From: Spirulina sp.
Lineage (GTDB): Bacteria; Cyanobacteriota; Cyanobacteriia; Phormidesmidales; Phormidesmidaceae
NCBI GenBank assembly: GCA_044070495.1
Contig: JBIPSI010000028.1
Location: 9,802 to 73,801 of the forward strand
Direction of reading: 5' to 3'
DNA: 64,000 nucleotides
A program made the translations under genes and the position numbers. The notes below the pieces were generated by a model. It ran no database searches. It was not told the origin of the DNA and saw only the letters and a list, made by a program, of their open reading frames with translations. This document shows positions 41,454 through 52,939 of the stretch, one piece after another. The stretch's first letter is position 1. Each line of letters starts with the position of its first letter.

Positions 41454-41647
41454 AGATCAACACTAAAGAAAACCGTAGGGATTTCGCTAAACCGCCACCG
41501 CTCCCTTTAACCTCGTAGATATCACGTCCTCCCCCGTCAAAACGTGGCCGGTCGTTGCTGCTCCTAGGCACTGTATTGGTTGCCATGACTCTTTCCTACG
41601 GCCCAGATCAACGTCTCTCCCGTGTCTCAACAGCGGGTCATTTTGCC

Positions 41648-44206
41648 ATGGGAATGCCATCCAACCTTCCCGCGCTCCCCCCGTTCCAGCGTGATGCTAC
41701 CCAGCGTGACGCTGCCCATCCGGTGGCCGAGGCCCTGCGGGTGACGGGCACGGTGCAGGGAGTTGGCTTTCGGCCCACGGTCTATCGGCTGGCGGTGGAG
41801 TTGGGGCTGCGTGGCCATGTGCTCAACGATGGCGAGGGTGTCCTGATTCACCTAGCGGGAACCTCGGCCCAGATTAACCAGTTTGTGGCTAATTTGCTGA
41901 AGGAAAAACCTCCCCTGGCCAAAATCGCCTGCATTCAGCGGCAATCCTTACCTTTAGACGCAATTCCTGAATCAGACTTCAGCATTATTGCCAGTACCCA
42001 CACCCCCGCCCGCACCGAAATTCCCCCCGATGCCGCCACCTGCCCCCAGTGTTTGGCGGATATCCTCAACCCCCGCAGCCGCTACTTCCGCTACCCCTTC
42101 ACCAACTGTACCCACTGCGGCCCCCGCCTCAGCATCATTCGAGATCTCCCCTACGACCGCCAAAGCACCAGCATGGCCTGGTTTGAGATGTGCCCCTCCT
42201 GCCGCCAGGACTACCAAGACGTGGGCAACCGCCGCTTCCATGCCCAGCCCGTCGCCTGCCCCGTCTGTGGCCCCAAGGTGTGGCTAGAAAAGGCCGACGG
42301 CAAACCCCTAGCCACAAAATCCCTCTCCTTGGTGGATGAAGCCGAAGCCGTTGCCACCCTGATTTTGCGCGGCGAAATCGTGGCCATCAAAGGGCTGGGC
42401 GGCGTTCACCTCGCCTGCGATGCCACCAACGATGCCGCTGTCCAGAAACTCCGCCAACGCAAACACCGCTACCACAAACCCTTCGCCCTGATGGTGAAGG
42501 ATCTCGCGGCAATTACGCCCTACTGCCAAGTCGGCCCCCAGGAAGCCGAACTCCTGCAAAGCCCCACCGCCCCCATTGTTTTACTTTCCCTGATCCAAAA
42601 TTCCCCCCCCCCTTCCCCCCTTCCCCCCTCTCCCCCTTCACACCTTCACACCTTCACACATCCCCCCCTCTCCCCCGCCCTTTCTCCTGGACTAGGCACC
42701 CTCGGCGTGATGTTGCCCTACACGCCTCTGCACCACCTGATCTTGCAGCGGCTAGATCGCCCGATTGTGATGACCAGCGGCAACCGTTCCGACGAACCGC
42801 AATGCATCACCAACGAAGCGGTGCGGGAACAACTGGGCGACATTGCCCCCTACTTTTTGCTGCACAACCGCGACATTGTGAACCGGGTGGATGATTCTGT
42901 GGTGCGGGTCGTGGATGGCCAGCCCCAGATTCTCCGACGGGCGAGGGGCTATGCCCCGGCTCCGATTACCTTGCCTGCTGGGTTTGACGGTGTGCCCCCA
43001 ATCCTAGCCCTGGGTGGCGAACTCAAAAGCACCTTCTGCTTGCTGCGACCCGGACAGGCGATTCTCTCTCAGCATTTGGGCGACTTGGAAAATGCAGCGG
43101 CCCACCAGGGCTATCGGCAGGCGTTGGATCTATACCTCAACCTGTTTGAGTACGAACCCACTCACCTGGTGGTGGATGCCCACCCGGAATACCTCTCCAC
43201 CAAACTGGGGCAAGACTGGGTCGAGCGTCAGGATATTGCCCTCACCGCCGTGCAGCACCACCATGCCCACATCGCCGCCTGCATGGCCGACAACGGCTTG
43301 CCCCTGGACACCGCCCCCGTCCTTGGCATTGCGTTGGATGGCCTCGGCTATGGCGACGACGGCACCCTCTGGGGCGGGGAATTTCTGCTGGCCGACTATC
43401 GCCAATACCGCCGAGTAGCCCACCTCAAACCCGTAGCCATGCTGGGCGGCACCCAAGCCATCCGCCAACCCTGGCGCAACACCTACGCCCACCTCGTCGC
43501 CGCCTTTGGGGATTGGCAAACCGTCCAAAAAGCCTTCCCAAAACTGGCCTTGGTGCGCTTTTTCAAAAACAAACCCCTGGCCCTGCTAGATTCCATGCTG
43601 GCCCAAAACCTCAATGCGCCCCTGGCCTCCTCCGCCGGACGCTTGTTTGATGCCGTCGCCGCCGCCGTGGGCCTCTGCCGCGAAACCGCCACCTACGAAG
43701 GCCAAGGAGCCATCGAACTCGAAGCCCTGATCCAACCCCACCACCTCGAAGAATCCCAGAATTCCGCCTATTCCTTCGCCCTTCATGGGGCATCCGATAA
43801 CGTAGGGGCGCGGTTTCCTCGCCCGCTGATCCTGGAGGCCAACCAGCCAGATTCCGCCTTCAACTCTCAACCCCTAGTGCTCGACCCCACCCCCCTCTGG
43901 CCCAACCTGCTCACGGATTTACAGCAAAGTACGGATCCTTCCCTGATTTCTGCCCGTTTCCATCTGGGATTCGCCAACGCCCTAGCTACCCTCACCCACC
44001 ACCTAGCCCAACGCCATCAAGCGACGACCGTTGCCCTCTCCGGCGGCGTGTTTCAAAATCAAATCCTGACGAGTCACGTTAAACAAAACCTGCAAACCCT
44101 CGGCCTCACGGTGCTCACCCACCACCAAGTACCCCCCAACGATGGCGGCCTTTCCCTTGGCCAAGCGGTGATCGCCGCCGCCCAATCGTCCCAACCACCG
44201 CCCTAA
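41648..44206 (+). CDS. hypF: Carbamoyltransferase HypF
   Basis: GTVQGVGFRP, CxxC zinc fingers, FHAQP, QHHHAH, LSGGVFQN, PPNDGGLSLGQ; start uncertain (41555-41654). Confidence 0.95.
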   Translation: MGMPSNLPALPPFQRDATQRDAAHPVAEALRVTGTVQGVGFRPTVYRLAVELGLRGHVLNDGEGVLIHLAGTSAQINQFVANLLKEKPPLAKIACIQRQSLPLDAIPESDFSIIASTHTPARTEIPPDAATCPQCLADILNPRSRYFRYPFTNCTHCGPRLSIIRDLPYDRQSTSMAWFEMCPSCRQDYQDVGNRRFHAQPVACPVCGPKVWLEKADGKPLATKSLSLVDEAEAVATLILRGEIVAIKGLGGVHLACDATNDAAVQKLRQRKHRYHKPFALMVKDLAAITPYCQVGPQEAELLQSPTAPIVLLSLIQNSPPPSPLPPSPPSHLHTFTHPPLSPALSPGLGTLGVMLPYTPLHHLILQRLDRPIVMTSGNRSDEPQCITNEAVREQLGDIAPYFLLHNRDIVNRVDDSVVRVVDGQPQILRRARGYAPAPITLPAGFDGVPPILALGGELKSTFCLLRPGQAILSQHLGDLENAAAHQGYRQALDLYLNLFEYEPTHLVVDAHPEYLSTKLGQDWVERQDIALTAVQHHHAHIAACMADNGLPLDTAPVLGIALDGLGYGDDGTLWGGEFLLADYRQYRRVAHLKPVAMLGGTQAIRQPWRNTYAHLVAAFGDWQTVQKAFPKLALVRFFKNKPLALLDSMLAQNLNAPLASSAGRLFDAVAAAVGLCRETATYEGQGAIELEALIQPHHLEESQNSAYSFALHGASDNVGARFPRPLILEANQPDSAFNSQPLVLDPTPLWPNLLTDLQQSTDPSLISARFHLGFANALATLTHHLAQRHQATTVALSGGVFQNQILTSHVKQNLQTLGLTVLTHHQVPPNDGGLSLGQAVIAAAQSSQPPP

Positions 44207-44218
44207 TCCCCAATTCCC

Positions 44219-44247
44219 TGTAGGGGCGCACTGCTGTGCGCCCCTAC
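44219..44247. repeat. GTAGGGGCG...CGCCCCTAC REP-like palindrome
   Basis: GTAGGGGCGCA-CTGCTG-TGCGCCCCTAC; relatives at ~12970, 14749, 18973, 23449, 43801 and 46547. Confidence 0.75.
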
Positions 44248-44282
44248 CCACCATCCCACCATCCCACTACCCCACCACCCCT

Positions 44283-44558
44283 ATGTGCCTCGGAATTCCT
44301 GGACAAATTCAATCCATCAGCGACCCCGTTAATCAACTCGCCATTGTCGATATCAGCGGTGTGCGGCGTCCTGTCAACATTGCCTGCATTGTGGACGAAG
44401 ACCATCCCCTGGAAAGCTGTGTGGGGGAATGGGTTTTGGTTCATGTTGGTTTTGCCCTCAATCGAATTGATCCTGACGAAGCGGCTGCTACCCTTGATTT
44501 GCTGGATCAACTCGCAGAATTTGATGCCAAGGAGTTAGAAATGGCGAACTATCGATGA
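44283..44558 (+). CDS. hypC: Hydrogenase maturation chaperone HypC
   Basis: MCLGIPGQI, VLVHVGFAL. Confidence 0.95.
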   Translation: MCLGIPGQIQSISDPVNQLAIVDISGVRRPVNIACIVDEDHPLESCVGEWVLVHVGFALNRIDPDEAAATLDLLDQLAEFDAKELEMANYR

Positions 44559-45028
44559 GTGAAACTGTTTATATTGAAACCAGCATTTTAGGCTATCTCA
44601 CGGCTCGTCCAAGCCGAGATTTAGTTGTGGCTGCCAATATTGAGATAACAAAAGAGTGGTGGGAAACTCGTCGTAGCAAGTTTCAGCTATATGCATCACA
44701 AGCTGTTGTCAAGGAAACTTCACAGGGGGATTCTAAAATCGCAGCACAACGCCTCGAAATCATAAGTCAAATTAAAATGCTTGAGCTAGATTCATCTGTG
44801 CTTAGTCTGGCAGAAAATTTTCTGGCACGTAGTAATCTTCCTGCAAAAGCTGATATTGATGCTGTCCATATCGCTGCTTCGACAATTCATGGAATAGACT
44901 ATCTACTCACGTGGAATTGCAAACATATAGCGAATGCTCAAATCCAGAGGAGGTTAGCACAAATAAGTGCTGATTTCGGATATGAACTGCCAATTCTTTG
45001 CACACCCTATGAATTGCTTGGAGGCTAA
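44555..45028 (+). CDS. PIN-domain (VapC-like) toxin
   Basis: VYIETSI, DAVHIA, LLTWNCKHIANA, ICTP-like end; AT-rich. Confidence 0.88.
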   Translation: MSETVYIETSILGYLTARPSRDLVVAANIEITKEWWETRRSKFQLYASQAVVKETSQGDSKIAAQRLEIISQIKMLELDSSVLSLAENFLARSNLPAKADIDAVHIAASTIHGIDYLLTWNCKHIANAQIQRRLAQISADFGYELPILCTPYELLGG

Positions 45029-45030
45029 TT

Positions 45031-45237
45031 ATGTATCAAGATGAGATTGTGGAAGAGATTCATCGAATTCGAGAAGAATACCTGCGATCATTTAACTATG
45101 ACTTGAAAGCCCTATTTGCTGATTTACAAAAGCAGCAAGCTGAAAGCGGAAGAGAAATGGTCAACTTGTCATCAAAGCGCAGTCAATCAACTCGCTGGAT
45201 CAATCGCGAGAAAGACTCTAAACAAGATGAAAAGTAG
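45031..45237 (+). CDS. Small putative antitoxin
   Basis: DEIVEEIHRIREE...FNYDL; 2 bp after the PIN stop. Confidence 0.7.
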   Translation: MYQDEIVEEIHRIREEYLRSFNYDLKALFADLQKQQAESGREMVNLSSKRSQSTRWINREKDSKQDEK

Positions 45238-45246
45238 GTTTAGGTT

Positions 45247-45323
45247 TAGGTTGGGTGGAACGAAGTGGAACCCAGAGCTAGAGCCAGCTTTGTTGGGTTC
45301 TGCTGTCGCGCCACCCAACCTAC
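45247..45323. repeat. Inverted REP-like doublet TAGGTTGGGTGG...CCACCCAACCTAC
   Basis: Right arm is nearly the exact reverse complement of 56789-56823. Confidence 0.8.
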
Positions 45324-45360
45324 GTTTTTTCAAATATAACTCTTTCCTTAGATTCTACCT

Positions 45361-46500
45361 ATGAAATACGTTGATGAATTTCGCGATCCAGCTAAGGCCC
45401 AGGGTGTTTTGGCGGATATTAGCCAACTGGCAGAAACGTTGACCCAAAATCGACCTGGGCCAATCAAAATTATGGAAGTTTGTGGGGGCCATACCCACGC
45501 CATTTTTAAGTTTGGGTTAGAGCATTTGTTGCCGCCCACCATTGAATTGGTGCATGGGCCAGGGTGTCCAGTTTGCATTATGCCCAAGGGACGTTTGGAC
45601 GATGCCATGGCCATTGCCCAGCAGCCCAACGTGATTTTTACCACCTTTGGCGATGCCATGCGGGTGCCCGGTGCCAAGCTGAATTTGCTGCAAACCAAGG
45701 CGGAGGGGGCGGATATTCGCATGGTCTATTCGCCGCTGGATGCCTTGGCCATGGCCAAGGCGAATCCTGATAAGGAAGTCGTCTTCTTTGCCATTGGGTT
45801 TGAAACGACGGCCCCCAGTACGGCCCTCACGGTGCTGCAAGCACGGGATCAGGGAGTGACGAACTTTAGTTTGTTTAGCAACCACGTCCTAGTAGTTCCG
45901 GCTCTGGAGGCGCTGCTGGATAACCCCGATTTGCAACTGGATGGCTTTGTGGGGCCGGGGCACGTCAGCGCCGTGATTGGCACCGATCCCTACCGGGTGG
46001 TTCCCGATCACTATGGCAAACCCGTGGTGGTGTCGGGGTTTGAGCCGCTGGATATTCTGCAAGCGGTGTGGATGGTGCTGCGGCAGTTGGCGGAGGGCCG
46101 CTGTGAGGTGGAAAACCAGTACACCCGCCTGGTGAACGACCATGGCAATGCCGTGGCCATGGCGGCGATGGCTGAGGTGTTTGAGGTGCGTCCCACCTTT
46201 GAATGGCGCGGGTTGGGGGATATCCCCGCCTCTGGGTTGCGGATGCGCTCGGCTCTGGCGGCGTGGGATGCGGAGGCCAAGTTCACCCTTCCCGGTCGGC
46301 AGGTGGCGGATCATCGGGCCTGTGCCTGTGGCGACATCCTCAAGGGGGTGAAAAAGCCCTGGGATTGCAAGGTGTTTGGCACGGCCTGTACGCCGGAAAG
46401 CCCGCTGGGGGCCTGCATGGTGTCCTCGGAAGGGGCCTGCGCCGCCTATTACAAATATGGGCGACTGGCGACGGAACGGCGACAGGTGAGTCGGGTTTAG
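45361..46500 (+). CDS. hypD: Hydrogenase maturation protein HypD
   Basis: MEVCGGHTH, GPGCPVC, GFETTAP, GPGHVS, CMVSSEGACAAYY. Confidence 0.97.
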   Translation: MKYVDEFRDPAKAQGVLADISQLAETLTQNRPGPIKIMEVCGGHTHAIFKFGLEHLLPPTIELVHGPGCPVCIMPKGRLDDAMAIAQQPNVIFTTFGDAMRVPGAKLNLLQTKAEGADIRMVYSPLDALAMAKANPDKEVVFFAIGFETTAPSTALTVLQARDQGVTNFSLFSNHVLVVPALEALLDNPDLQLDGFVGPGHVSAVIGTDPYRVVPDHYGKPVVVSGFEPLDILQAVWMVLRQLAEGRCEVENQYTRLVNDHGNAVAMAAMAEVFEVRPTFEWRGLGDIPASGLRMRSALAAWDAEAKFTLPGRQVADHRACACGDILKGVKKPWDCKVFGTACTPESPLGACMVSSEGACAAYYKYGRLATERRQVSRV

Positions 46501-46756: not shown

Positions 46757-48445
46757 ATGGCACCCAAACCCAAACCCCCAGAGCTTCCGGTGATTGGCAC
46801 GGTGAAAGGGCCGGGGGACACGGGCAACCAATACCTGTTCATCACCGCCGACCATCGCCAGGTAAAGATTGGCGAGTTTGTCTACTACCGGGTGGATGTG
46901 GTGGACTTACCCCAGGCGGAGATTTTAGGCAAAATTTCGGCGCTGACGTTGATTGACCACCTGCCCGACCGTCTGTTTGCCGACCCGGACATTAACCCGG
47001 AGGCCATCGCCGCCCTGGTGGGGTTTGCCCATCCCAACCCGGAAGTGTACGAGGTGACGGTGGACGTGGTGGGTTATTTCCATCCGGCCCTGGGCTTCAT
47101 TAACCCCCGCATGGCCCCCGATCCGGGCGCGAAGGTCTACTTGGCGGACGATGCCAGTTTGCAGCACATCATCAACAAAAAGCAGCCCCAGGCGGCGGGT
47201 TCGGCCCACATTGGTTCGCTGCTGCTGCGGCCCGGTGGACGGGTGCCCGTGGCGTTGGATGTGAAGGAATTGGTAAGCACCCACATGGCCATATTGGCGG
47301 GGACGGGTTCCGGCAAATCCTACACGGCGGGGGTGTTGATTGAGGAACTGATGAGTCCCTACAACCGGGCAGCGGTGCTCATTTTTGACCCCCACGGCGA
47401 GTACGGCACCCTGACGGATATGCGCGGCCACCCGGCCTTTGCGGCGGACGATGGCTATAGCCCAGCGGTGAAAATCCTCACCCCCGACGACATCCGCATT
47501 CGCATGTCCTCCCTGGATTACTACGATATTCTCACCCTGCTGCCCGACATGAGCGACCGCCAGCAGGCCATCCTCAACAAAGCCTTTAGCCTGCTGGGCA
47601 AACACAAACTAGGCGACCACCGCTGGGACGTGCAGGATTTAATCGCCGCCTGCTACGAATCTGACCGCAGCACTGACGACGAAGGCAACGAAAAAACGGG
47701 TTCCTCTGCCCCCGCTCTGGAATGGAAATTGGGCAAGCTGGAACGGTCGGATTATTTTCATCGAATGCAGCACCTTGCGCCGAAGGATTTGTTTGCCCCC
47801 GGCCAAGTAACGGTGCTGCAAATGAACGAAATTAGTCAGGAAGAACAGCAGGTGATCTGTGCCGCAGTGCTGCGCCAAAGCTACCAGGCCCGCATGAACA
47901 CCGCTAAGGAAAAAATCAACCCCGACGACGAAAACTATCTACCCTATCCCGTCTTTATTTTGATTGAAGAAGCCCACCGTTTTGCCCCTGGTCACGAACC
48001 CTCCCGCTGCAAGCAAATTCTGCGGACGATCCTCAGCGAAGGGCGCAAATTTGGCATGGGTGTGGGCCTAATTACCCAGCGTCCCGGCAAGCTCGATTCT
48101 GACGTGCTCTCCCAGTGTATGAGCCAGTTTCTGATGCGGATTGTCAACCCCGTAGACCAGGAAAGCCTGAAGTATGGCGTGGAAGCGGCGGGGCGTGACC
48201 TGCTGCAAGAACTTCCCGCCCTCACCAAGGGTCAGGTGATTGTCTCCGGCGCGTGCGTCAACACCCCCGTCCTTTGCCAAGTGCGCCAGCGCAAAACCAA
48301 ACACGGCGGCGAAACCATGGATGCCCCCGCCGCCTGGTTGGGCTATTTTCAATCTCACCGAAAACAGGCCCGCCAGATGGAAAAAGCTCCCCTCGCCCAA
48401 CCGGGCAAAGCGGCGGAAACCTTTGGCGGCGTGAGTATTGAATAG
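46757..48445 (+). CDS. HerA-like (DUF87) ATPase
   Basis: N-terminal barrel, HMAILAGTGSGKS, IFDPHGEY, ILIEEAHRF, SEGRKFG, ITQRPGKLD. Confidence 0.9.
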   Translation: MAPKPKPPELPVIGTVKGPGDTGNQYLFITADHRQVKIGEFVYYRVDVVDLPQAEILGKISALTLIDHLPDRLFADPDINPEAIAALVGFAHPNPEVYEVTVDVVGYFHPALGFINPRMAPDPGAKVYLADDASLQHIINKKQPQAAGSAHIGSLLLRPGGRVPVALDVKELVSTHMAILAGTGSGKSYTAGVLIEELMSPYNRAAVLIFDPHGEYGTLTDMRGHPAFAADDGYSPAVKILTPDDIRIRMSSLDYYDILTLLPDMSDRQQAILNKAFSLLGKHKLGDHRWDVQDLIAACYESDRSTDDEGNEKTGSSAPALEWKLGKLERSDYFHRMQHLAPKDLFAPGQVTVLQMNEISQEEQQVICAAVLRQSYQARMNTAKEKINPDDENYLPYPVFILIEEAHRFAPGHEPSRCKQILRTILSEGRKFGMGVGLITQRPGKLDSDVLSQCMSQFLMRIVNPVDQESLKYGVEAAGRDLLQELPALTKGQVIVSGACVNTPVLCQVRQRKTKHGGETMDAPAAWLGYFQSHRKQARQMEKAPLAQPGKAAETFGGVSIE

Positions 48446-48507: not shown

Positions 48508-49467
48508 CTAGGGATTGGCCGTGGCGCTGTTAATGGCCTGCTGTCCCTGGGGAGAGAGGGCAAAGCCTAAAAAGGCTTGTACCGCTGGGTTATTGCTGTC
48601 TTTGTAGACGTAGTACAGCGAGCGCTGGAAGGGGTAATTGGCGGCTTCCGGGGTTAGGCCCTCAATGGGTACCACCCGCACCGTTTGCTGGTCGGCCACT
48701 TGGCTGTAGGTGGCATAGCCGATGCCATCGGTGCCCAGTTGTTGCAGCATGGGCGTGGTGGCGTCCCGCGTCATGGTGGTGATGTTGGGGGTGGTGCCAA
48801 AGTCGCCGCCACCGAGGACGATCTCTCGAAAGGCCACATGGGTGCCGCTAACGGCGGGGCGGTTAATCACCCGAATGGGGGTATCGGGGCCGCCGAGGGT
48901 GGCCCAGTTATTCAGGCTACCCTGGAAAATCTGCACCGTTTGCGTGGAGGAAAGCCCCCGCTGGAAAGGATTATCGCGGCCCACCACTAGGGCAATGCGG
49001 TCGGTGGCCACGGGCACGGCGGTTAGCCCCTGGGCTTGCTCTTGGGGGGTGAGGGCACGGGAGGAGGCCGCGATGTCAATGCTGCCCCCTAGCACCGCCT
49101 GAATACCGTTGTCTGACCCCACCGCCGCCGTGTTGACGGTGGTGCCGGGGTATTGCTGTGTAAACCCCGCCTTCAGCGCTTCGTTAATCAGCACCATGCT
49201 AGTGGAGCCATCAATATTCACGGTGGTGCCCGCTGCCACGCTGGGCAGCAAGGTGAAGTTCGCCGTTCCTGCCGGGGGTGTTTGGGGGGCCTGGGGCGGT
49301 GGGGCGCTACCAGACTGGGGGGCTTCTACCCCTGGCGGCGTTGCGACGGGGGCGGCTTTGGGGCGCAGGAAGAAAAACCAGTAGGCTCCGCCCAACAGGC
49401 CCAACAGCATCAGAATAAACACAATGGGAGGGGGGCCACTGCGTTTCGGGGTATTACCGTTACTCAT
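48508..49467 (-). CDS. Membrane-anchored PstS-like phosphate-binding protein
   Basis: N-terminal TM + Pro-rich linker; IDGSTSM, GSDNG, AASSR, INRPAVSGTH. Confidence 0.8.
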   Translation of the reverse strand: MSNGNTPKRSGPPPIVFILMLLGLLGGAYWFFFLRPKAAPVATPPGVEAPQSGSAPPPQAPQTPPAGTANFTLLPSVAAGTTVNIDGSTSMVLINEALKAGFTQQYPGTTVNTAAVGSDNGIQAVLGGSIDIAASSRALTPQEQAQGLTAVPVATDRIALVVGRDNPFQRGLSSTQTVQIFQGSLNNWATLGGPDTPIRVINRPAVSGTHVAFREIVLGGGDFGTTPNITTMTRDATTPMLQQLGTDGIGYATYSQVADQQTVRVVPIEGLTPEAANYPFQRSLYYVYKDSNNPAVQAFLGFALSPQGQQAINSATANP

Positions 49468-49476
49468 GGGGTGGGG

Positions 49477-50190
49477 TTACTCCGTGGGGGCTTGGGACGA
49501 GGCACCATCGAGCAGTTGTAGGCGACGGGAAACCTCATCGTCGATGGTGAGTTGATCGAGGTCGGCGGCCAGCTTTTCGTTGGGGTTTTCCGACAGTTCC
49601 GCTAGGGCATTGCTACGCAGGTGGCGACCTTCCACCGCACTCTTGGCCGATTCAAAGGACGACCGGGCCGAGCCAATGTCAAACTCGTTGTTCACCTTGG
49701 CAATGGATTCTAGGGCGCTGTTGATCTCGGCCAAGTCCTTCATGTTGTCCATGTCGGTCTTGTACTGCTCTAGCTTCAGCCGCTCGCGGTTGAGCTTGTC
49801 CTTGGAGGCGGCGACAAACTTTTCGGCCTGCTGTACCTGGGTTTCGAGCTGGGGCAAAAGCTGCTCAATTTGGATGGCCTTCATCATCGCTAGGCGGGCC
49901 GCATCGGCGTTGCCCGATTGTTGCGCCAGGGCAGCCTGTTGCTCGAATTTCCGCAGTTCTCTGGCCTTTTCCTCGTACTTTTTCTTCGCCCGTTCGTAGG
50001 CTCCCACCTGCATGGCCACGGCTTCAGCCAGCTTTTGCACCGAGGTTTGCATCTCTTGCAGCGACTCTTCGGCCACCGCCACCGCCACCTTGCCCCCCGA
50101 CTCTACGGGGATGCCCCAAAGCCAGTTCCAGGTGCCAACAATCGTGCGTCCTGCCTTTTCGCCCATCAACCAATAAATGGCATCTTTCAT
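49477..50190 (-). CDS. PspA/IM30 (bacterial ESCRT-III) family protein
   Basis: All-helical coiled coil, A...GNADAARLA hairpin turn, SA..SFE, DDEVSRRL tail; Trp-rich N-terminus. Confidence 0.75.
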   Translation of the reverse strand: MKDAIYWLMGEKAGRTIVGTWNWLWGIPVESGGKVAVAVAEESLQEMQTSVQKLAEAVAMQVGAYERAKKKYEEKARELRKFEQQAALAQQSGNADAARLAMMKAIQIEQLLPQLETQVQQAEKFVAASKDKLNRERLKLEQYKTDMDNMKDLAEINSALESIAKVNNEFDIGSARSSFESAKSAVEGRHLRSNALAELSENPNEKLAADLDQLTIDDEVSRRLQLLDGASSQAPTE

Positions 50191-50378
50191 AGCAATTCGT
50201 CCCACCCAATTAAGAGGCCGTATCCTAGCTGCAATTACAGACCCAATCCCAACGATTCCGGATTTTCCCCATGCCGTCAGTGATGATTCAGTAACCTAAG
50301 TTGCCACCCAAAACAGTGCTACCCCCATGGTGCCCGCCCAAGATTAACATCTGGTCAACCCCTTAACCGACCGTTACA

Positions 50379-50617: not shown

Positions 50618-52939
50618 TTGACCAAGCCCATGCCCCCCTCCGAACCCGCGATCACCACCACATCCCCCAAAGCCTCCGGCCTAGGCACCTTTGGCGGGGT
50701 TTACACTCCCTCCATCCTGACTATTTTGGGGGTGATTATGTACCTCCGGTTTGGCTGGGTGGTGGGTAATGTGGGCCTATGGGGGGCGCTGGCGATTGTG
50801 ACGCTGGCCGTTAGCATTACCTTTCTAACGTCGTTGTCCATCAGCGCCATTGCTACGGATCGGATCGTGCGGGTGGGCGGGGCCTACTACATGATCAGCC
50901 GATCCCTCGGCATTGAAACGGGCGGCGCGGTGGGTATTCCCCTTTACTTTGCCCAGGCGCTTTCGGTGGCGCTCTACACCATTGGCTTTGCTGAAAGTGT
51001 GGTTGCCGCCTTTGGCCAGTTCAACCAAACCTATGTGGCGCTGATTGTGACCATTTTGGTGGCGGCCCTGGCCCTCACTTCGGCCCAGGTGGCGATTCGA
51101 GCCCAGTATGGGATCATGGCACTGATTGTGTTGTCGCTGCTGTCCTTGGCGTTGGGGTCGCCCCTGGAGGGGACGGAGGCCGTGCTCTGGCGGGTGACGG
51201 AGGGGGAGTCGTTTTGGCAGGTGTTTGCGGTGTTTTTCCCGGCGGTCACGGGGATTATGGCCGGGGTAAATATGTCGGGGGATTTGAAGGAGCCGACGCG
51301 ATCCATTCCCCTGGGTACCCTGGCGGCGGTGGGCACCAGCTATGTCATCTATATGGTGCTGCCAATTGTGTTGGCCATGCGGGCCGATGCCGCCACCCTG
51401 ATCGACGACCCCCTGGTGATGCAGCAAATAGCGCTGTGGGGGCCAGCGATTTTGCTGGGCATTTGGGGGGCCACCCTCTCCAGTGCCATTGGCAGTATTC
51501 TCGGTGCGCCCCGGATTTTACAGGCCCTAGCGCGGGACGGGGTGTTGCCAAGCTGGCTGAACTTTTTGGGCCAGGGCAGCGGGCCGAATGACGAACCCCG
51601 TCTGGGTACGACGGTCACGTTGGGGGTGGCGGTGGCGGCGGTAACGGTGGGCGATCTCAACCTGATTGCCCCGGTGCTGACCATGTTTTTTTTGACCACC
51701 TATCTCGTCCTCAACGTGGCGGCGGGGGTGGAAGGCTTTCTGAACAGTCCCTCCTTTCGGCCCATATTTGCGGTGCATTGGTCATTGTCGGCCCTGGGGG
51801 CCTTAGGCTGTCTGGCGGTGATGTTTTTGATTAACCCCGTGGCCACCCTGGTGGCGGGGATAATTGTGGTTGCCACCTTTTTATGGATTCAGCGTCGCGA
51901 ACTCCAAAGCACCTGGGGCGATGCCCGTCGCGGCCTTTGGATGATGTTGTTGAGAACCAGCCTGTTTCAGTTAGATCATGCCCCCGATCCCAAAAACTGG
52001 CGACCCAATATGTTGGTGTTGTCGGGGTCACCGATGCGTCGCTGGGGGCTGATTAAGCTGGCCAATGCCCTGAACCACAACCGGGGGCTGTTTACCGTCA
52101 CCAGCATTTTGCCCAGCGGATCGCGTAGCATTCGGCAGCAGCAGGAAATGGAAGTGAGTATCAGCCGCTTTCTGCAAGAACGGGGAGTGCAAGCCTTGGT
52201 GCGGGTGCTCACCGCCCCGGATCCCTTTGAGGGGGTGGAGCGCATGGTGGAAATTTACGGGCTAGGGCCGCTGGTGCCCGATACCGTGCTGCTGGGCGAT
52301 AACGAAACCCTGGCCAACCGAGATCGCTATTGCCACCTGATTACCCAACTCTATCGGTCGGAGCGCAACGTGATCATTTACTGTGATCGCAACGCCAAAA
52401 ATCGTGACCCCGAAAACCGCGATGCCGACAATCGTGAATCGGGAGACCCTGCCGCTGAAAGTCGTCCCCCCGAAGCCAGTCTCTTTGGCCAACGGCCCTA
52501 TCGCCAACGGCCCTATCGGCAAATTGACGTGTGGTGGGGCGGCTTGCGGGGCAATGGAGCGCTAATGCTGATTATTGCTGAGCTACTGCGGGACGGCATT
52601 GAATGGCGCTACGCCGAGATCCATCTCAAACTGGTGGTGCCCAACGAACAGGCCGCCACCACCGTCAGGGCGAACCTGAAGACCCTCGCCCAAGCCCTCC
52701 GCGTCAACGCCGTAGTAACGGTTCTGGTGGCCGAGGGGCGATCCTTTAACGACATCCTGCACCAGTCCTCCCGCCGCGCCGACATGGTGATTATGGGGCT
52801 AGCCGAACCCCAGGACGACTTCTGTGCCTACTACACCGCCGTTCAACAGCGTGTTGCCGATTTGCCCACCACCCTGCTGGTGTTGGCTGCCCCCAACTTT
52901 GCCTTTAACGCCATCCTCGATAAAGAGGTCGCCGCCTAG
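50618..52939 (+). CDS. Cation-chloride cotransporter (SLC12-like, APC superfamily)
   Basis: LGTFGGV, GVIMYLRFGW, GGAYYMISRSLG, FFPAVTGIMAG.NMSGDL, KNWRP, IDVWW. Confidence 0.9.
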   Translation: MTKPMPPSEPAITTTSPKASGLGTFGGVYTPSILTILGVIMYLRFGWVVGNVGLWGALAIVTLAVSITFLTSLSISAIATDRIVRVGGAYYMISRSLGIETGGAVGIPLYFAQALSVALYTIGFAESVVAAFGQFNQTYVALIVTILVAALALTSAQVAIRAQYGIMALIVLSLLSLALGSPLEGTEAVLWRVTEGESFWQVFAVFFPAVTGIMAGVNMSGDLKEPTRSIPLGTLAAVGTSYVIYMVLPIVLAMRADAATLIDDPLVMQQIALWGPAILLGIWGATLSSAIGSILGAPRILQALARDGVLPSWLNFLGQGSGPNDEPRLGTTVTLGVAVAAVTVGDLNLIAPVLTMFFLTTYLVLNVAAGVEGFLNSPSFRPIFAVHWSLSALGALGCLAVMFLINPVATLVAGIIVVATFLWIQRRELQSTWGDARRGLWMMLLRTSLFQLDHAPDPKNWRPNMLVLSGSPMRRWGLIKLANALNHNRGLFTVTSILPSGSRSIRQQQEMEVSISRFLQERGVQALVRVLTAPDPFEGVERMVEIYGLGPLVPDTVLLGDNETLANRDRYCHLITQLYRSERNVIIYCDRNAKNRDPENRDADNRESGDPAAESRPPEASLFGQRPYRQRPYRQIDVWWGGLRGNGALMLIIAELLRDGIEWRYAEIHLKLVVPNEQAATTVRANLKTLAQALRVNAVVTVLVAEGRSFNDILHQSSRRADMVIMGLAEPQDDFCAYYTAVQQRVADLPTTLLVLAAPNFAFNAILDKEVAA

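Follow-up and report, generated by a model that had tools for sequence, protein, structure and literature searches.

What could tie a divergent homologue of PspA to a PstS-like phosphate-binding protein that is encoded away from the phosphate transporter genes? The question is raised by two adjacent minus-strand genes at positions 48,508 to 50,190 of a 64,000-nucleotide stretch of Spirulina sp. DNA (assembly GCA_044070495.1, contig JBIPSI010000028.1, positions 9,802 to 73,801), hereafter the window, which belongs to contig C28 of a 5.3-Mb genome in 74 contigs. PspA and Vipp1 have come to be regarded as the ESCRT-III of bacteria; what is known to aim them at membrane sites is stressed lipid and a handful of small protein partners. 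A sequence-only reading of the window had proposed an envelope-remodelling or defence module, in which a phosphate binder recruits or triggers a PspA polymer. Here, we describe the pair as a conserved module whose functional link, as the evidence points to, runs through the cytoplasmic tail and anchor start of the partner. The most economical mechanism would be direct docking, whereby the PspA paralog docks on membrane anchors that carry a short proline tag and polymerises there, a reading to which we give a probability of roughly 58%.

The pairing was followed in two samples. Among 401 genomes of 156 genera, the paralog (called at E<=1e-20) occurs in 51 genomes and 26 genera, all labelled as the window genome's own or the same class; of the 50 loci examined, 37 have a PstS-like gene immediately downstream and in the same orientation. 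In a scan of named species, for which the best 80 of 263 relatives were analysed, three loci end right after the paralog gene, and the remaining 77 have downstream room; the PstS-like gene follows in 75 of these, 73 times within ~150 nucleotides (nt) and twice at 1.3-1.5 kb. The named genera include Nodosilinea, Phormidium, Petrachloros, Leptolyngbya and freshwater Synechococcus/Cyanobium, as well as Calothrix, Nostoc, Mastigocoleus, Microcoleus and Hormoscilla. When all open reading frames (ORFs) of at least 120 amino acids (aa) from the 80 named loci were clustered, only the paralog and PstS-like genes were widely shared (78 and 74 loci). Three more clusters (36, 25 and 24 loci) are, by example coordinates, antisense ORFs overlapping these two genes. 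Since the pair recurs in dozens of genera, it is not a product of chance, and since only these two genes are widely shared across loci, paralog and partner are a conserved two-gene module, which agrees with the proposal of a module built around a membrane-anchored, pst-orphan PstS-type protein.

The same neighbourhoods bear on a possible role in defence, against phage or otherwise, with the paralog as an abortive or protective effector triggered by the periplasmic binder. PspA was first found as a phage-induced protein, and in the window a HerA-type ATPase gene with PADLOC HerA matches adjoins the pair; however, this gene runs towards the pair and does not recur with it elsewhere, and real neighbours of the pair are common to at most 9 of the 80 loci. 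With 0 families of PADLOC-DB 2.0 matching either protein, and no third gene conserved next to the pair among the 80 clustered loci, we see no sign of the defence role, regard it as very improbable and have rejected it.

The upstream gene encodes a PspA/IM30-like protein, matched by PF04012 PspA_IM30 at 58.5 bits (cut-off 33.9), over profile positions 29-214 of 220 only. It remains under the NCBIfam equivalog cut-offs for PspA (TIGR02977, 16 vs 242.95) and LiaH (NF045984, 23.5 vs 380). A profile of 29 paralog relatives matches PDB Vipp1 at E 7e-13, from profile position 37-39 on only. The AlphaFold2 model built on the 29-relative alignment (mean predicted local distance difference test score, pLDDT, of 73; 89-98 over residues 41-140) places helices at residues 32-91, 95-170, 175-198 and 203-231, and a Foldseek comparison with the PDB returns Vipp1 and PspA as the best matches (6zvr Vipp1, E 7.7e-5). 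For the hairpin-only chains 4whe (PspA) and 6zvs_A, the target-normalised template modelling (TM) scores are 0.71-0.76 (4whe, 0.71). As modelled, the paralog fits an ESCRT-III-type fold with a long alpha1-alpha2/3 hairpin, then alpha4 and alpha5, consistent with the fold that had been proposed from its letters.

The same genome encodes two stronger PF04012 matches (207 and 163 bits), both starting MGLFDR..., which we read as its Vipp1-like and PspA-like proteins. A quick maximum-likelihood tree was computed from 38 rows, comprising 29 of the new clade and nine Vipp1-like or PspA-like proteins from five genomes, with one row containing a run of X left out. In this tree, a branch with a Shimodaira-Hasegawa-like approximate likelihood ratio (SH-aLRT) of 100 separates the new clade from the other rows, the path between them being 2.29 + 1.99 changes per column; the paralog groups with neither the Vipp1-like nor the PspA-like proteins encoded in the same genomes. 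It also lacks the Vipp1-type C-terminal extension (alpha6), ending after alpha5 at 237 aa, and falls outside Vipp1. The paralog is a third, divergent member of the PspA/Vipp1 family, far from the genome's own Vipp1 and PspA, and its suspected distinctness from Vipp1 and canonical PspA holds.

The most conserved novelty of this clade is its strongly interfacial N-terminus, whose richness in Trp had already been noticed. All four Trp of the paralog lie within the first 30 residues, and G10, W21, W23 and G26 are invariant across 29 sequences, while the Pfam and PDB profile alignments start only at residues 37-46. For residues 17-27, the Wimley-White interfacial energies add up to -6.1 kcal/mol, and the helical moment is low; over residues 1-30 the moment is 0.05-0.55, compared with 0.57-0.88 in the first 19 residues of the genome's Vipp1-like protein. 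The N-terminal amphipathic membrane-binding helix alpha0 of the PspA family thus appears to be absent. A search of the ESM Atlas with residues 1-40 gave sub-0.9 matches to unnamed short clusters only, and hence no lead.

The downstream gene encodes the PstS-fold protein, with a PF12849 PBP_like_2 match of 127 bits. Its hydrophobic maximum is the 19-mer at residues 15-33 (Kyte-Doolittle mean 2.3); because the protein has no Cys, it has no lipobox, and the anchor looks uncleaved. A Pro-rich stretch at ~35-76 follows, so that anchor, missing lipobox and stalk are all as the sequence-only reading described them. The protein would be a type II (N-in), single-pass membrane protein, with a short basic cytoplasmic tail ending in G-P-P-P-I-V-F at the point of membrane entry. 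This tail is conserved. In an alignment of 21 partners of the paralog, P13, P14 and I15 never vary, and conservation reaches 90% or more at S10, G11, P12 and V16. The tag at the anchor start can be written as [KR]-x-G-P-P-P-I-V-[FY]. One ORF in the window's genome has such an N-terminal motif (ORFs of at least 100 aa). The tag is present in 46 of the 50 loci, with GPSPIVF in one more, and the tag expression matches 72 of the 75 named partners, the other three reading PPIA[YF].

The tag is also found on proteins that are not phosphate binders of the PstS type. PstS is missing from 13 of the 50 loci; in 10 of them, the adjoining gene encodes a ~450-510-aa protein carrying the same N-terminal tag, located downstream in nine loci and present as two genes divergently upstream in one. 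All eight of these partners that were scanned contain Peripla_BP_6, and most contain TPR; they are unrelated to PstS, and start with a basic residue or two, followed by (G)PPPI(V/F)(F/Y/W) leading into an anchor. Additional clients are encoded apart from the paralog. For example, two genomes that already have a PstS-type client hold a second, unlinked Peripla_BP_6 client (L216, L221), and in genome G394 a tagged OmpA-domain client longer than 512 aa (L238) is unlinked to the paralog. A tagged PQQ_2 beta-propeller client is found at L236. In G272, where the paralog has no adjoining partner, a tagged Sll0540-type client (L093) is encoded elsewhere. In the named genomes G401 and G402, a methylase gene follows the paralog in place of a partner, and a search of both for full-length Sll0540-type proteins came up empty, with a PstS-like domain within an 840-aa frame as the sole match. 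The back-translated tag pattern has three sites in these two genomes, two of which are the N-termini of a 473-aa protein of Peripla_BP_6 type and a 478-aa protein in which Peripla_BP_6 was found by scanning. The earlier view that a phosphate binder defines the link therefore did not hold, as the paralog also has partners of Peripla_BP_6, beta-propeller and OmpA-domain type, which have nothing but the tag in common.

Conversely, the phosphate-binding domain occurs without the tag. Sll0540-type proteins, the family of the window's partner (see below), are found in 119 of the 401 genomes at E<=1e-40, a wider spread than that of the paralog. Among 40 loci of such proteins outside the known partner set, all 36 readable unpaired orthologues start MSQKNET.../MGQKNE... 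and have no PPP tag. Six of the 36 are from genomes in which the paralog has a tagged Peripla_BP_6 partner (L089, a seventh locus of this kind, is truncated at its N-terminus), and another, L076, is from a 3.57-Mb single-contig genome in which the paralog was not found. Tagged proteins among the 40 are L093, described above, and L098, whose neighbour is a broken paralog; the N-terminus of L099 is of another kind, a zinc ribbon.

Counts across genomes give the same picture. The strict pattern GPPPIV[FY] matches in 39 of the 401 genomes and its reversed control in 2; of the 39, 37 belong to the 51 that have the paralog and 2 to the 350 that do not. Of these last two, one match falls in the interior of a glycosyltransferase-like frame, and the other marks a genuine tagged Peripla_BP_6 protein, whose genome keeps only a 19-residue paralog remnant. 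In a family-level test on 89 genomes, in which Peripla_BP_6 matches aligned into the first 11 residues were counted, the paralog is present in 21 genomes and a tail-aligned client in 20, all among those 21; the client adjoins the paralog in all 20, and the 21st genome has a paralog fragment only. Of the 17 genomes of one genus, 13 carry both genes and four carry neither. Furthermore, a basic residue occupies paralog position 22 in 13 of 17 pairs with LPP/IPP tags vs 11 of 102 with PPP tags; as these pairs are kin, this is only a hint that the position co-varies with tag type. The pattern recurs in two unrelated client families, and in linked and unlinked clients; we read the tag as following the paralog rather than the domain family.

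This co-occurrence would apply equally if the paralog were a biogenesis helper, that is, a dedicated chaperone or membrane protector for the insertion of PPP-bearing signal-anchors, acting transiently and forming no lasting scaffold or sensor. The clients are diverse, so a common need in targeting or insertion is plausible, and PspA systems are known to respond to secretion and insertion stress (review PMC7619361). Yet one paralog gene for every one to three clients would be a heavy investment, and tagless Sll0540 orthologues exist in genomes where the paralog was not found, which argues that the anchor itself needs no help. Transient and lasting contact are not separated by the data; on balance, we consider such a helper unlikely.

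The outer domain of the window's partner has a known relative. The protein stays under the curated PstS cut-offs (TIGR02136, 137.5 vs 206.6; TIGR00975, 36.7 vs 205), and residues 77-315 match PDB 9l8j chain A, the Sll0540 protein, at E 1.7e-83, which indicates an orthologue of Synechocystis Sll0540 with close orthology of the binding domain. Synechocystis 6803 has Sll0540 as its fourth phosphate-binding protein, which is treated among S-type proteins, is encoded apart from pst1 and pst2, and shows little response to phosphate limitation (PMC13614923). The previous remark that no functional characterisation was known stands as regards function, which the same source gives as unknown, and needs qualifying as regards the crystal structure and the measured, relatively low phosphate affinity, both of which exist (PMC13614923). 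Across the 21 partners, T89, S136, R137, D156, S207, G208, T209 and R282 are invariant, and alignment reading maps onto the protein the S-type ligand features named in PMC13614923, namely an N-terminal Thr/Ser, a central Asp, a C-terminal Arg and an SGT loop. Given that the S-type residues are kept, phosphate or a close analogue is the likely ligand.

Such a domain invites the view that the two genes are merely co-expressed, with the PstS-like protein a low-affinity subunit for a PstCAB encoded elsewhere and the paralog a general membrane-stress protein sharing its transcript. Membrane-tethered binding proteins that serve ABC importers are known, and the genome does encode a transporter: the sole pstC above cut-off lies on contig C42 in a pstS-pstC-pstA-pstB row, with an additional pstB on C43. 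The genome scan found no pstC, pstA or pstB in the window's region of C28, as had been noted for the pair's surroundings. The invariance of the S-type residues and the phosphate binding of the orthologue Sll0540 would also suit this view (PMC13614923), but the small response of Sll0540 to phosphate limitation, reported in the same source, does not. Moreover, plain co-expression leaves unexplained why the tag and not the domain tracks the paralog, why both genes are gained and lost jointly within a genus, and why alpha0 has been replaced by a conserved Trp segment. We therefore hold it to be quite improbable.

Docking on the tag would account for these features as follows. The coupling element looks to be the partner's N-terminal tail at the anchor start and not its phosphate-binding domain: the outside domains of clients vary and the tag is constant, which suggests that docking is shared and the ligand is not. 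The paralog may have lost the lipid-sensing alpha0 of its family and acquired the Trp-rich interfacial segment instead, which could sit in the cytoplasmic leaflet and bind the proline tag of clients; proline-rich peptides are commonly bound by aromatic grooves. The ESCRT-III-type core would then polymerise on the membrane at tagged sites, and the polymer would in turn collect clients into patches. Outside, the clients would present a low-affinity S-type phosphate binder in the window, and elsewhere an amino-acid-type binder with TPR, a beta-propeller or an OmpA-domain protein. That the ligand state of the outer domain gates docking is considerably less probable than docking itself. A complex prediction of the paralog with partner residues 1-48 scored 0.00 and so gave no answer, speaking neither for nor against binding.

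Several points weigh against docking. What the data show is the modelled fold, the separate clade, the gene pairing, the conservation of the tag and its co-occurrence with the paralog; physical binding, polymerisation, clustering and ligand control are things that we infer, contact between tag and paralog included. The N-terminal 31 residues of the paralog model have low confidence (pLDDT 45-50). A cytoplasmic tail of ~12 residues is a small handle for signalling, and the invariant S-type phosphate residues equally fit an ordinary transport role. The co-occurrence statistics are overstated because the genomes are related and the counts are not independent, and part of the pairing could reflect one operon inherited as a unit. 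Additionally, 14 of the 51 paralog genomes escape the strict pattern, with variant tags such as APPPIVF, LPPIFY, IPPIVW and GPSPIVF, so the limits of the motif are loose; in G288, whose paralog is broken, no tag was found with the one pattern tried.

A more far-reaching version of docking, which we put forward tentatively and consider doubtful, is a cargo-specific ESCRT-III-type system, in which the paralog would read the proline tag, polymerise, and sort or concentrate clients into a special membrane domain. Clients may even be placed in inward- or outward-budding membrane carriers. If this is true, the paralog would be the first member of the PspA family in bacteria to be directed by an address label on proteins instead of by lipid stress.

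Known systems offer both a mechanistic analogy and a precedent for the tag. PspA-family proteins are recruited by small membrane partners such as PspBC and LiaI, and the tagged protein could be the membrane receptor of the polymer as these are for PspA and LiaH, with the membrane element encoded beside the PspA homologue in each case. The likeness would be one of analogy and not homology: the partners here are non-homologous, with no LiaI/LiaF or PspB/C domains by Pfam, and consist of a single-pass anchor with a large periplasmic ligand-binding or other domain, several clients sharing one tag. Compared with PspA and Vipp1 (IM30), which the paralog resembles in its PF04012 and PDB profile matches and in its hairpin and two further helices, it stands out by its very long separate branch, its unmatched alpha0, the lack of the C-terminal extension and its tie to tagged membrane proteins. 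The window's partner shares with Sll0540 (PDB 9L8J) an orthologous periplasmic domain and a location apart from pst genes, and differs from the Sll0540-type orthologues of genomes in which the paralog was not found in being tagged and in an operon with the paralog. Sorting-tag systems such as PEP-CTERM with exosortase and LPXTG with sortase were likewise found by co-occurrence, and there, too, a short terminal motif on unrelated exported proteins is nearly confined to genomes with the dedicated partner. In contrast to those, the present tag is N-terminal, in an uncleaved-looking anchor, and its partner is of ESCRT-III type and no protease or transpeptidase, so that no processing is implied.

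Both domain families were already known, and the structure of the Sll0540 domain has been solved; in the literature searched we found no description of the third PspA clade with its Trp-rich N-terminus, the fixed pairing or the shared tag. No mention of a PspA paralog that pairs with PstS or with another binding protein occurs in the consulted parts of this literature, which includes PMC8281802, PMC13051332, PMC11237479 and PMC7619361; for PMC11237479, one supplement was checked for PstS/PBP terms, and its other tables or web app may list such neighbourhoods. If docking is true, a clade that swapped its lipid-sensing helix for a tag-matched segment would offer a testable protein-addressed ESCRT-III assembly in bacteria. 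It would also give a first clue to what the Sll0540-type 'fourth' phosphate-binding proteins do, and likewise to the function of a set of anchored cyanobacterial Peripla_BP_6/TPR proteins. The tag itself is a simple sequence rule for finding further clients.

Table 1. Features of the gene pair and its flank in the window (window coordinates).
Feature	Position	Strand	Basis
PspA/IM30 third-paralog gene	49477..50190	-	237 aa + stop; start at ATG 50190, MKDAIYWLMGEKAGRTIVGTWNWLWGIPVE
Trp-rich N-terminal segment YWLMGxxAGRxxVGxWNWLWGxPVE, codons 1-30, at the alpha0 position	50101..50190	-	29-sequence alignment
Predicted ESCRT-III-type core, codons 32-231: long hairpin + two more helices	49498..50097	-	AlphaFold2 model, Foldseek
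Intergenic spacer, 9 nt	49468..49476	-	Sequence read
Tagged, signal-anchored PstS-type (Sll0540-type) binding protein gene	48508..49467	-	ORF, 319 aa
Tag K-R-S-G-P-P-P-I-V-F, codons 8-17, at the cytoplasm/membrane boundary	49417..49446	-	21-partner alignment
Hydrophobic signal-anchor IVFILMLLGLLGGAYWFFFL, codons 15-34	49366..49425	-	Kyte-Doolittle; no Cys
Pro-rich linker, codons 35-76, from anchor to binding domain	49240..49365	-	Translation; outside Pfam/PDB matches
Periplasmic S-type phosphate-binding fold, codons 77-315	48523..49239	-	Alignment to 9l8j
Terminator-like hairpin, ~100 nt past the PstS-like stop codon	48391..48410	-	Consensus scan; weak

The layout in Table 1 involves a choice of start codon. 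The minus-strand ORF at 49477..50205 counts 242 aa from its GTG, and because homologues are almost all 237 aa long, the ATG at 50190 is the likely start; the in-frame GTG at 50205 would add five residues if used. The stop codon of the paralog (TAA, 49477-49479) and the ATG of the PstS-like gene at 49467 leave the 9-nt gap reported from the sequence-only reading, whose observations on the pair are all borne out at the positions given. A consensus scan of the region found four terminator-like sites against 3.1 expected, with promoter and terminator counts near expectation. In RNA libraries, small shares of the stretch are covered in metatranscriptomes, and contigs from relatives (~90-95%) cover both genes. 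A 1106-nt RNA-library contig (X6; 48491-49614) spans the spacer; none of this RNA evidence is given weight, as such contigs do not prove a single transcript.

The module appears to have been lost repeatedly. The paralog is broken, shortened or reduced to a remnant in G062:C24 (L098), G300:C405, G469:C1:3560010-3560321, G288 (L059) and G056:C34 (L242), with an intact tagged client still present in G062 and G056. One record, L155 (CALRTY020000012.1), is labelled as a Chitinophaga pinensis metagenome-assembled genome and holds a Cyanobium-like copy of the pair, with 74% identity to the window's paralog; it is probably a binning or labelling error.

Related domains occur in other architectures. 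The window's own genome encodes, on contig C1 (locus L008, 373-2334, minus strand), a 653-aa anchored PstS-type protein of reversed architecture, with an N-terminal signal, a PstS-like PBP_like_2 domain and a hydrophobic stretch, on whose other side lies DUF4912. In dozens of cyanobacterial genomes, an Sll0540-like domain (38-47% identity, query residues ~57-316) lies inside frames of 800-1700 aa, for example at G035:C64:27785-28537 and G050:C19:89816-90568, which suggests fusions to large other parts.

Some Peripla_BP_6-type loci have signalling genes nearby. In one genus (L046, 6792-9470; L048, 5469-8078; both minus strand; and relatives), an 870-890-aa CHAT + Peripla_BP_6 protein precedes paralog and client, and a 236-aa ORF that reads, by eye, like a response regulator follows them. 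At L045, a Ser/Thr kinase by Pfam lies downstream. These genes hint at a signalling role in those lineages; none comparable is conserved beside the PstS-type pair in the 80 loci.

The remaining neighbours in the window are of mixed type. The HerA-type ATPase gene that converges on the pair occupies 46757-48445 on the plus strand and carries DUF87, with PADLOC HerA models matching at up to 163 bits; it is not conserved beside the pair elsewhere (80 loci). On the other side, a divergent plus-strand gene (50618-52939) adjoins the pair and encodes a 773-aa SLC12-type cation-chloride cotransporter homologue (AA_permease + SLC12; TIGR00930 at 465 bits, under cut-off), which is not a conserved neighbour of the pair either. 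Further away, the plus-strand stretch 41555-46500 holds hypF, hypC and hypD by Pfam, and its guanine-plus-cytosine content falls to 0.50. Two small ORFs, 44555-45028 (no Pfam match at E<=1e-4) and 45031-45237, split hypC from hypD.

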